Shown piece by piece: positions 9,571-12,516 of a DNA stretch of 13,702 nt. The DNA is from Aquificaceae bacterium (GTDB taxonomy: Bacteria > Aquificota > Aquificia > Aquificales > Aquificaceae): NCBI GenBank assembly GCA_037924335.1, contig JAXSMZ010000008.1, forward strand, positions 38,766 through 52,467. The letters are read 5' to 3'. Below the pieces are notes generated by a model. It was not told the DNA's origin and searched no databases. It was given only the letters and a program-made list of their open reading frames with translations. Position 1 is the stretch's first letter, and every line of letters begins with the position of its first letter. A program made the translations under genes and the position numbers.

Positions 9571-9931
9571 CCTCTATTTCTACTTGTGCTTCAAGGGGAA
9601 GGGCAAAGACCCCAACAGTCGTCCTAACTGGTTTTACCCTCACATTCTTAAAGTACTCTTCGTACACTTCATTGAACTTTTTAAACTTGGATAGGTCTGT
9701 CATATAAACAACTACTCTTAAAACCATATTCCTGCTTGTTCCTGAGGATAAAAGTATCTCATCTATGTTTTTGAATATCTGTCTAACCTGATCCTCAAAA
9801 CTTTCCTTAAGCTTTCCCGTACTTGGGTCTATACCTATCTGCCCAGATACAAAGATAAGTTTCTCATAGATTACAGCCTGAGAGTAAGGACCAACAGGTT
9901 TTGGTGCTCTATCCGTAAAGACCTCTCTCAT
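9551..9931 (-). CDS. ridA: RidA family (YjgF/YER057c/UK114) reactive imine deaminase
   Basis: APKPVGPYSQAV, FVSGQIG, FNEVYEEYF, PVRTTVGV (catalytic Arg retained) and LP..AQVEIE. SD AGGAG and ATGA overlap with the yebC stop. Confidence 0.93.
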   Translation of the reverse strand: MREVFTDRAPKPVGPYSQAVIYEKLIFVSGQIGIDPSTGKLKESFEDQVRQIFKNIDEILLSSGTSRNMVLRVVVYMTDLSKFKKFNEVYEEYFKNVRVKPVRTTVGVFALPLEAQVEIEVMAAVS

Positions 9932-10677
9932 AGGGTCTCCTTTAAGACCTCCTCTGGAATGTCAAAGTTTGATATGACGCTCTGAACATCATCGAGCTCA
10001 TCTAATGCATCAAGGAGCTTTAGCACCCTTTTGGCCATCTCTGGGTCCTTTATCTGCACTGTGCTTTTTGGTCTGTAGTTTATTCCAGAGTTCTCAATGG
10101 GGATGTTATTTCTTATGAAGCTTTCCTTTACGCTGTAGAAGTCCTCAGGCCTGGTGTATACAGTATAGGCTACATCGCCAGACTCTATGTCCTCCGCCCC
10201 TGCCTCTATGGCCTTTTCGTATATCTCCTCCTCGCTGACAGCATCCTTTGGAACTTCCATATACCCTACCCTTTCAAACATGTAAGACACGCAACCAGAG
10301 GAGCCAAGGTTTCCACCGTACTTTGTAAATACGTGCCTTACATCCGATGTGGTCCTGTTTCTGTTGTCTGTTGTAGCAAGAACGATCACAGCAACACCGC
10401 CCGGACCATAGCCTTCGTAGATGACTTCTTCGTACGACTCACCTCCAAGTTCTCCAGAACCTTTCTTTATAGCCCTCTCTATGGTTTCCATAGGCATGTT
10501 GGCTTTTCTTGCATTCTCTATAGCTGTTCTCAACCTTGGATTTGCTTCGAGATTTGCTCCACATTCTCTAACTGCAACGGTTATTTCCCTTATCAATTTG
10601 CTAAAAAGCTTACCCTTTTGTATATCTGCCTTAGCCTTTTTATGTTTTATCTGCGCCCAATGACTATGTCCTGCCAT
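9928..10677 (-). CDS. yebC: YebC/PmpR (TACO1) family protein
   Basis: MAGHSHWAQIKHKK, NPRLR, YEGYGPGGVA, TDNRNRT and LDELDDVQSVISN. Confidence 0.97.
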   Translation of the reverse strand: MAGHSHWAQIKHKKAKADIQKGKLFSKLIREITVAVRECGANLEANPRLRTAIENARKANMPMETIERAIKKGSGELGGESYEEVIYEGYGPGGVAVIVLATTDNRNRTTSDVRHVFTKYGGNLGSSGCVSYMFERVGYMEVPKDAVSEEEIYEKAIEAGAEDIESGDVAYTVYTRPEDFYSVKESFIRNNIPIENSGINYRPKSTVQIKDPEMAKRVLKLLDALDELDDVQSVISNFDIPEEVLKETL

Positions 10678-10683
10678 AAGTTA

Positions 10684-10689
10684 ATTATA
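10684..10689 (-). promoter_or_regulatory. -10 box for leaderless-type yebC-ridA transcript
   Basis: TATAAT followed by 6 nt and the yebC ATG. There is no SD at normal spacing and no clear -35. Confidence 0.6.
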
Positions 10690-10729
10690 ACCTATAGTTC
10701 CCCCTTTCATAGAAATCAAGCTCTTTATT

Positions 10730-10896
10730 CCTACCACTGCAGGGGTTTAGGAGGCCCCACTACAACTTTAGACCTCCAAGGCAGCACTATTACAGCCTTT
10801 ATAACCTCTCAAGGTGTCTTTTTACCAACACCTCAAGGGTTTGCTTTTTCGCAGTAGTAGGTTTAGCCCCAGGAGGAACGTCCTCCTAAGGTTTCA
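10730..10896 (-). ncRNA. Candidate structured non-coding RNA of unknown family
   Basis: Five helices folded by eye: H1 10867-10891, closing stem 10851-10861/10730-10740, H2 10803-10841, H3 10778-10799 and H4 10750-10777. Their G-U pairs work only on the minus strand. The element begins just downstream of a TTGACA-17-TATATT promoter and contains no credible ORF. Confidence 0.7.
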
Positions 10897-10902
10897 ATGT
10901 AA

Positions 10903-10931
10903 AATATACCGCAAGATTTCTCCCTTGTCAA
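10903..10931 (-). promoter_or_regulatory. Near-consensus sigma70 promoter
   Basis: TTGACA (10931-10926), a 17-nt spacer and TATATT (10908-10903), with an AT-rich tract upstream. Predicted start ~10895-10896. Confidence 0.8.
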
Positions 10932-10977
10932 GAGGTGAACTTATAAACAATATATCTATATTCTTCTAAAAATTTCT

Positions 10978-10995
10978 ACTAATTTGGTAATTAGT
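10978..10995. repeat. Perfect 7-bp inverted repeat (operator-like or weak hairpin)
   Basis: ACTAATT-tggt-AATTAGT. Confidence 0.45.
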
Positions 10996-11010
10996 TCCTA
11001 ATACTATTCC

Positions 11011-12516
11011 TTACAAGACTTTTACCTCTATCTCGTACAGTTCCCCTTTGTTCTGTATGGGTATGGTGCCTGTTCTTCCGGTAAGAACTAAAAACCTTCC
11101 ATCCTTTGTGAAAACTACAGATTGAATGGCTTCTTCAAGGGAGCCACCCATGAGCTGCTTAAAAAAGATAAGGTCTTTTCTCTGCTCACCCAAAAGGAAA
11201 AGCTCCCCTTTTGAGTACTTTATTATGTCTAAGAACCTCTGGATTTGGCTGCTGTAGTTCCTTATCACAAAAGCTACCCTAAAGCCCAAAAGCTCTCCCA
11301 CAGTACCTTTTGGATTGAAAACATAGTTGATCTTGGCACCGCCAATGGACATCTCCACATAAGAGTAAGAACCTCCAAAGCCCTCATCCGAAGAGAAAAC
11401 CTCGTTGTTTCCATCAAAGATCCTCACTCTGCCAGAAGAATCTGTAAACACAAGATAGTTTCCATAATAAAAGGCACTATCTACTCTAAAACCCCTTGGT
11501 GCTGGAAAAACTCCAACTTCTTTGATTCCATCCCTACCTAGAGATAGTCTGACAACCTTTCCTAACCTGTTTTCAAAGTCGAAGCTCTGTCCCATAAAGG
11601 TCTCTTTAGGTCTGCTCTTGTCAAGTATACCCATTATGTAAGGTATGTCTCCTTGTACTGGCAGAAGGCTATCCCCCACCATCTTCAATATGAGTGAGCT
11701 TGCTTTATCTCCCGATATCATATTGACTGTTATGAGGTCTTTCTCCTCTTGTCCTATCCTACCAACAGATACAGAAACAGGTGTGCCAGCAGGTAAAGAG
11801 TAACTTGCCCTTCTTACTATATCGTTCTTTAAAAGTTCATAAACTTCCACCTTCCCCGAGTAAAGGACCACAAGATAGTCCTTACCGTTACCCATAAGGT
11901 CGCCAACGTCCGCAGATATGGGTATGGAGGGAAGGGATTTTACAAACTTACTTCGAGCTAAAAGCTTAAGGTCCTGCACGCTCGCTTTTTGCAGGGATAC
12001 GCTCGTTTGGCTAATTGGGTAAAAAGCTACAGGTGAGTTCATGAACTCAATGCCGTAACCATCCTTAAACTCTTTGACTGTGTAAGTGCAGCCACTACCC
12101 TTTTTTAGTCCATCAACGAAAGAACTAACCTTAAAAAAGCCCTCATCGGAACCCTCGTAGCATACGCTCGGTGTCAGAAGTTCTACCCTATCCCCAACTT
12201 TTACATCTTTACCCTCCGTTATCCTCGCCTCTGAGAAGTTTTCGTAAACCTTATCCACCCTTAACTTACCAATTACAGAGCTTTCCCTTCCTAATACCTT
12301 TCCAGTTATTGGGTGGATAACCTCTTTTCCTTCCCTCTTAACGATAAACTCTTCTCCTTCTTTCACCTGACCCTTACCCATATCGATAAAAGCTTCGTCT
12401 TTTTCTACTTTAATCACAAAGCCTGTTCTTGAAAAGAATTTCTTTATCCCTTCCTCAAAGCTTTGGGCAAAGGAAAAAGACGCGATAAAAAGAACGATCA
12501 AGCTAACTTTTCGCAT
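11011..12516 (-). CDS. Secreted hypothetical protein: signal peptide, FlgT C-terminal-like domain, FG-GAP/VCBS-like beta-propeller region
   Basis: 501-aa ORF with SD GGAGG and signal peptide [22 protein letters not shown]...[23 protein letters not shown] resembles FlgT_C-like modules. [15 protein letters not shown] resembles an FG-GAP/VCBS repeat. The ORF is solid; domain calls are by eye. Confidence 0.75.

Follow-up and report, generated by a model that had tools for sequence, protein, structure and literature searches.

The structured RNA on the minus strand of the analysed window, a stretch of 13,702 nucleotides from an Aquificaceae bacterium, is very probably the omegaRNA (reRNA) of an IS607-type TnpB, carried on a 307-bp mini-element that encodes no protein. 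The identity of the RNA as a TnpB omegaRNA is the firmest part of this explanation, and we hold it with high confidence. That the RNA is used in trans within the lineage is favoured by a smaller measure, and its use in this particular genome is rather doubtful. The system is of a known kind, a standalone omegaRNA, and its points of variation are an AT or CT core and a glutamine at RuvC-III of the cognate protein. The first-pass annotation had proposed an undescribed host RNA or a cis-regulatory leader of yebC and ridA. The former reading was abandoned, as the copies are dispersed with unrelated flanks and correspond to the omegaRNA that lies 3' of tnpB in an IS607-type element.

Boundaries and target of the mini-element

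The non-autonomous mini-element occupies positions 10694..11000 (minus strand) and contains no open reading frame; its ends were placed by alignment with full and mini copies. The left end (10932..11000, minus strand) is 73-77% identical to the left ends of tnpB-coding elements and 74-76% to 18 belonging to a second family in the same genome. Roughly the first 50 bases after 11000 are common to the window copy and the left ends of full elements, and because of this match we define the mini unit as the 307 bp from 11000 to 10694. At the opposite boundary, conservation stops sharply at the base equivalent to 10694 in 13 copies, whose flanks are unrelated except for one orthologous pair. Contigs from public DNA runs have loose ends that match both boundaries, at 10694 in three of four runs and at 11004 in two of four.

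The tetranucleotide GTAT (11001..11004, minus strand) abuts the left end and belongs to host DNA. As the target or TAM motif, it precedes every left end of this type in the genome (19 of 19, the window's included). We infer that its last two bases, AT, form the recombination core. Empty sites are seen for relatives of the element. At the site of a full element in G046, nine of ten orthologues are contiguous and six read GTAT; at that of a 299-bp sister mini (G061:C12), all six orthologues inspected of the 13 returned are contiguous and four read GTAT, while the filled left junction has one extra base. The empty sites carry no target duplication, and in G046 and G048 the BLAST pieces share 2 bases. 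For the window locus itself, no true empty site was found through yebC or the 501-aa gene in congeners, where the neighbours differ. The contigs of the four public runs, which cannot show absence, hold neither a circle joint nor a joint that skips the element.

Many dispersed copies with target duplications had been named beforehand as the mark of a MITE. Dispersed copies were indeed found, with a short shared core in place of the duplication. A classical MITE was rejected on the empty sites without duplication and on the ends, which by inspection are not inverted copies of each other.

The target tracks the element end. GTAT is found for seven of ten elements ending in ACTA, and GTCT for nine of twelve ending in ACTC, a count qualified by the recurrence of GTCT within the left end of the latter group. 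These counts cover 23 elements with a locatable left end, scored in the expected 27-base window (chance 0.11 and 0.06; one element has no end). As exceptions, GTAT occurs in three of the 12 ACTC-ended elements and is missing in three of the ten ACTA-ended ones. The window element's own end reads CTAT.

Promoter and fold of the RNA

A sigma70-type promoter, TTGACA-17-TATATT (10903..10931, minus strand), forms part of the left end. Full elements and the second family have TTGACA or TTGACG promoters at the same place in their left ends, and since the window promoter aligns with these, we regard it as native to the element. With 11 of 12 matches it ranks first among 15 promoter-like sites in the window, in line with its earlier description as the window's one full consensus promoter; as a class, such sites are not enriched there (15 found vs 20.1 expected). 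Transcription is predicted to start at about 10896, and the promoter lies ~5 nt ahead of the first hairpin.

The omegaRNA scaffold (10694..10896, minus strand) comprises about 200 nt, with a folding z of -5.54, and is assigned by covariation and by homology to tnpB elements, where the match spans the final ~60 codons and the right end. All helices described in the first-pass annotation are present in both the MFE and the centroid structure of the minus strand of 10900-10720 (-76.6 kcal/mol, z -6.02, none of 200 shuffles as good). The plus strand of the RNA region folds more weakly (z -2.75, two of 200 shuffles as good). The 5' hairpin H1 (10867..10891, minus strand) shows two-sided change at eight of 11 pairs over 31 sequences, in a poor alignment register with 68.7% of cells paired. 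The closing stem P2 (10730..10861, minus strand), formed by 10861-10851 with 10740-10730, surrounds H2 (10841-10803), H3 (10799-10778) and H4 (10777-10750), all on the minus strand and placed by a coordinate check of the fold. Its inner six pairs are 96.2% paired, five of them with two-sided change; the outer five are 61.2% paired. A count by eye reproduced the nine G-U pairs and three CUAAA motifs reported earlier.

The coordinates of hairpin H3 stood, but what was called its inner stem makes better sense as an open loop that pairs with the last five bases of the element. This loop, AUAGU (10786..10790, minus strand), is the 5' strand of a pseudoknot with 10698-10694. The right end (10694..10729, minus strand), recognised from the sharp conservation boundary at 10694 and from helix counts, contributes GGGG (10703-10700), which pairs with CCCC (10745-10742), and the terminal ACUAU, the 3' strand of the pseudoknot. 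The pseudoknot AUAGU:ACUAU closes the scaffold, with 98.7% of cells paired. Among 31 sequences, one of its pairs is U-A in 19, G-C in the other 12 and broken in none; it switches together with the element end and the target motif (GTAT or GTCT). Of the ~165-nt RNA first proposed, the helices thus hold and the limits do not: the unit does not end at 10730 but is conserved to 10694, and it starts at 11000, upstream of the promoter.

Across the alignment, 87.4% of cells are paired, compared with 78.2% in shuffled and 38-58% in slid controls, and two-sided change is observed at 34 pairs against 24.4; because the window itself supplied the structure and the sequences share ancestry, these figures are not probabilities. 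The alignment holds 32 copies, 31 of them distinct. Element ends were located partly by regular expression, and several of the 15 loci without such an end were added by hand. The lack of a recognisable family also held: Rfam (10000-11600, E<=10) gave three matches at E 1.2-5.6, none near the gathering score, four related loci searched at E<=1 returned nothing relevant, RAGATH-18 included, and ARAGORN detected no tRNA or tmRNA.

The yebC locus and the flanks of the element

Downstream, the host flank begins with a yebC/PmpR-family gene (9928..10677, minus strand), which is followed by a Rid-family gene (9931-9551, minus strand). The upstream host flank carries a 501-aa gene of no listed family (11011..12516, minus strand). 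These genes were placed by sequence annotation. That yebC has its own -10 box was borne out, TATAAT lying 6-8 bases before the ATG in seven of seven genomes. The gene appears leaderless in the genus (window 10689-10677; L052-L057), with a different upstream neighbour in every one of the six congeners. In one of them (G032, L052), a palindromic stretch ~220-290 bases upstream of yebC may resemble a REP-type repeat. The 501-aa protein is secreted-looking, has no Pfam or NCBIfam family and is conserved in five of five congeners.

In these five congeners, the gene next after the 501-aa gene is the gene that lies, in this genome, beyond another copy of the element on contig C17 (flank of G000:C17:35127-35319). 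Because the 501-aa gene's neighbour lies there, the two flanks of the window copy appear to stem from two insertion sites, and the left flank may have been swapped by recombination between copies or mis-joined. We rate it slightly below an even chance that the 501-aa gene and yebC were brought together by chimeric assembly of two copies instead of by a real flank swap. Besides the congener gene order, contig C17 breaks off within the element, overlapping by 55 bases, no contig of the four public runs spans the element, and in runs X1 and X5 another contig matches the window through 11004 and then diverges, giving a second left flank that is not in this assembly. Against a chimera, the window copy has its joint set of left end, H2 and short H4 in common with the G061:C12 mini, whose empty sites are clean, it has no N gap, and the upstream neighbour of yebC differs among all six congeners in any case. 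The identity of the RNA is independent of the flank question.

Copies and distribution

This genome contains three loci of the RNA (241-base query), the two besides the window both lying at contig ends. The same query matched 17 of 90 family genomes at E<=0.01, nine of them below 1e-8, and one of six congeners. A covariance model built from 17 copies matched 15 of 90 family genomes and one of six congeners, with six copies in G061. Among the 28 model matches examined, tnpB lies directly upstream in 17, a distant fragment in one and none in ten, two of the latter having fewer than 31 bases upstream. Phage and plasmid collections gave no match. The promoter-RNA junction of the window mini recurs in three minis of G061, and in G060 with the RNA deleted. 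A further mini in this genome (G000:C16:35591-35820) has H2-H4 deleted and a different promoter.

Evidence for selection on an RNA without a reading frame

The window copy has stops and frame breaks in the old tnpB frame. When pairs are defined on a coding relative (L033), eight of eight double changes in the window copy retain pairing, and one of 60 pairs is broken where 12.0 are expected (none of 5000 simulations reached this), under a null that ignores relatedness and with part of the divergence possibly predating ORF loss. On the same pairs, four minis of G061 have 2-6 broken; decay in sister minis further includes one broken pseudoknot pair, one -35 box reading TTGCCA and two copies mostly deleted for the RNA. 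Two minis that have one and the same promoter-RNA junction are set apart by double changes in H2 and H4. Unless the minis were mixed by recombination, this suggests that selection acted once the ORF was gone. The persistence of the fold through double changes in an ORF-less copy suggests use of the RNA in trans. Selection on an RNA of the promoter's strand, argued earlier from the G-U pairs, is supported by fold conservation and compensatory changes in the alignment and by the L033-based comparison.

The conserved scaffold is followed by a variable, flank-derived guide that differs at every insertion. By analogy to TnpB systems, the predicted guide of the window copy (10674..10693, minus strand) would be the host flank that covers the -10 box (10689-10684) and start codon of yebC. 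This guide forms a fold of its own, in competition with the pseudoknot. Three guides compared with 14,121 GTAT sites in the genome had no target beyond chance, the longest seeds being 6, 6 and 9.

Cognate TnpB and transposase

In four genomes (G046, G061, G031 and G050), the RNA overlaps the 3' end of an ORF of 471-503 aa. All three full-length cognates tested score above the cut-off of TnpB family NF040570, and the predicted structure (pLDDT 89) matches Cas12f and TnpB structures, including that of ISFba1. The IS607 transposase family NF033518, a serine transposase, is above cut-off in L037, L112 and L120 and lies upstream of tnpB in G050. Loci L112 and L120 encode intact 194-aa IS607 transposases and have GTAT and ACTAT ends as in the window. 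G061 combines minis and an intact 471-aa cognate tnpB in one genome. The titled TnpB relatives come mostly from hot-spring lineages (Aquificaceae, Hydrogenothermaceae, Caldisericum), and one homologue carries the name ISCARN1-type. A 52%-identical TnpB is encoded by a Thermus phage (P0066), a possible transfer route between hot-spring phyla.

The 39-contig assembly of this genome contains no full cognate tnpB, the best match being 51% over residues 19-143 and frameshifted. It likewise has no IS607 transposase above cut-off, and its one weak match is, judging from its sequence, presumably a MerR-type regulator. Repeats in this assembly are broken at contig ends, which limits both absences. A frameshifted, more distant tnpB lies at a contig end (G000:C7:52560-53277).

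The cognate protein is not a canonical D-E-D TnpB nuclease, its triad being D-E-Q. Among the best 120 homologues, D245 is kept in 119 and E329 in all 120, and position 410 is Q in 111, D in eight and a gap in one. The glutamine aligns without gaps with the catalytic-motif aspartate of AsCas12f (NADYN). In a tree of 77 near-full ORFs, the 43 Gln-bearing rows form one clade (support 0.909). Residues D292, E368 and E399 are enriched in this clade and are candidate compensating acidic residues, and the C4 finger is kept. As far as the accessible parts of the two papers go, TnpB branches with a rearranged RuvC-III are described (PMC10691335), and loss of any triad residue is reported to abolish cleavage (10.1101/2023.11.30.569447). 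We favour a rearranged active site because the other two triad residues are kept and mobility continues, and we lean towards the Gln-bearing TnpB retaining some nuclease activity.

Comparison with known systems

The comparisons below rest on the accessible parts of the cited papers. The standalone omegaRNAs and PATE-like elements of PMC10691335 and PMC10055086 are, like the window mini, mobile units without a protein that keep both ends, occur in multiple copies and carry an omegaRNA presumed or shown to act in trans. The published PATE-like cases belong to IS200/IS605 (Y1, hairpin ends), whereas the relatives here encode serine transposases, and the window mini differs further in its near-consensus left-end promoter at the RNA 5' end.

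With the IS607 systems ISXfa1, CboIStron and ISFba1/RAGATH-18 (PMC10711439; 10.1101/2023.11.20.567912; PMC11061315), the family shares a serine TnpA and TnpB, an RNA end at the element's right end, a scaffold whose last bases equal those of the target, and a self/non-self difference just upstream of the core; the terminal pseudoknot is found in ISXfa1 as well. These systems have a GG core and G-rich TAMs, in contrast to the AT or CT core and GTAT or GTCT target of the window family. The window-family TnpB, at 470-500 aa, is nearer to Cas12f in profile and fold, its RNA matches neither RAGATH-18 nor another Rfam family, and there is no intron. The scaffold of ~200 nt also exceeds the lengths reported. 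A GG core with a G-rich target is called typical or strict for IS607 in the available text of PMC13565253. On this GG criterion, the element is filed as an IS607-type variant and not as a canonical member; the supplementary text of PMC10711439 may list non-GG IS607 cores.

The RIIIr branches of PMC10691335 share the replacement of the conserved RuvC-III aspartate with the other two residues kept. The example given there changes Asp to His and has no zinc finger, whereas here Asp is changed to Gln and the C4 finger is kept; the Gln clade may already be classed among the six RIIIr branches of that paper. TldR proteins (10.1101/2023.11.30.569447) likewise combine an altered RuvC triad with a guide RNA, but have at least two triad changes and novel gene associations, compared with the one change, mobile ends and variable guides found here. 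The literature searched, with ISfinder and most subscription papers outside its scope, held nothing on this clade, on a GTAT TAM or on an Asp-to-Gln RuvC-III.

Proposed mechanism and alternative readings

Ends, homology, copies, the fold and, for two relatives, empty sites are read directly from the sequences; the mechanism is modelled on work on ISXfa1, CboIStron and IS605. An internal deletion would have fused the left end and promoter to an RNA that is intact from its start through the right end. By analogy to IS607 and TnpB, a serine TnpA acting in trans would move the mini as a circle into GTAT sites, with crossover at the short AT core. The left-end promoter would then produce an RNA of ~220 nt ending in 16-20 nt of host flank. 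A cognate TnpB, likewise acting in trans, would load this RNA and recognise GTAT plus guide, which is the site emptied by excision. The element's own CTAT end would be spared, so that the mini is retained.

If this explanation is right, one candidate new ncRNA is removed from the annotation and an omegaRNA family without an Rfam match is added. An orphan omegaRNA under structural selection after gene loss would provide comparative evidence on the role of standalone omegaRNAs. The lineage would represent an IS607 type with an AT or CT core in which target, end and pseudoknot covary, and its hot-spring TnpB, with a predicted 4-nt TAM and a D-E-Q site, would be a thermostable nuclease with a rearranged site or else a natural binder that does not cut. 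We also put forward, as a speculation to which we give only a small chance, that in this still-mobile lineage a TnpB without cleavage keeps its guide RNA, that promoter-driven minis are selected to supply guides in trans, and that target, core and pseudoknot switch together. Retention would then proceed by RNA-guided binding and not by cutting, for example if the empty site is marked as a place where the serine transposase can re-insert the element, and the joint switch would run from GTAT/ACUAU/AUAGU to GTCT/ACUCU/AGAGU.

The same origin is also compatible with an RNA that is an inert passenger here, its DNA ends being read by the transposase and its fold a relic. We consider this unlikely, though it is the most serious alternative on function. 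It gains from the missing cognate tnpB, the self-folding guide, the deleted and decayed sister copies, and the minis of the second family, which have variable deletion points. It accords poorly with the compensatory changes in H2 and H4 between same-junction minis, which seem later than ORF loss, and with a near-consensus promoter placed ~5 nt before H1.

An improbable reading is that yebC-ridA has recruited the insertion, which would serve it as outward promoter and structured 5' leader. The window's strongest promoter does point that way, and yebC itself keeps only a -10 box. Since no terminator-like site intervenes before yebC, read-through into yebC-ridA is likely, but as a side effect and not the cause of the fold: the element is absent upstream of yebC in all six congeners, the same RNA occurs at unrelated loci, and its conservation tracks TnpB, not yebC. 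The leader role first suggested for the RNA was given up on these grounds.

Still less probable is a domesticated, TldR-like repressor in which a nuclease-dead TnpB is guided to the yebC promoter or another gene. The clade-wide glutamine at RuvC-III and the overlap of the guide with the -10 box would fit such a role. Only a single triad residue is changed, however, the ends are intact and the guides vary per insertion, all three guides lack a GTAT-adjacent target beyond chance, and CTAT stands before the filled site.

A housekeeping or novel host ncRNA (6S, SRP, an RNase P remnant or a riboswitch), to which the size, a consensus promoter like that of 6S genes and the missing Rfam assignment might point, can be dismissed in view of the patchy multi-copy distribution, the direct homology to tnpB 3' ends and a 6S candidate elsewhere, on contig C4 (E 2.9e-7, below cut-off). 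6S RNA itself was rejected, there being no RF00013 match and no single-copy rod with a central bubble. The available text on 6S RNA in PMC4227106, compared by wording and not by coordinates, ties nothing to this RNA.

Related families and insertion sites

A second IS607-type family in this genome counts 18 left ends, each preceded by GTAT, and 21 right ends; its TnpB bears Asp, and it has minis of its own (217 and 293 bp where free of N). It is present on contigs C2, C4, C7, C8, C10, C11, C12, C15, C18, C19, C20, C27 and C34 and is probably behind many of the contig breaks. One transposase may serve both this family and the mini of the window. The family's omegaRNA is shorter, with the same terminal pseudoknot, and has a longer complementary pair in place of CCCC/GGGG.

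A sister family in genus g7 (L201, L205, L211, L212, L214, L219) has an Asp-bearing TnpB, ~43% identical, and a similarly long RNA with the loop GGAGU and the end ACUCU. Present in several copies per genome, it constitutes a natural active-site control for the Gln clade.

At L033:6852-7262, the element sits at the second codon of a host gene, which we take to be EVE-like, and its right end provides a new in-frame ATG that restores the ORF. At L034, a HAD-family gene takes its ATG from the right end plus flank, behind a G-rich stretch. At L035:4531-6099, the full tnpB element of G061 adjoins the 3' end of a homologue of the 501-aa gene in the other orientation, which may be a coincidence or an insertion hot spot.
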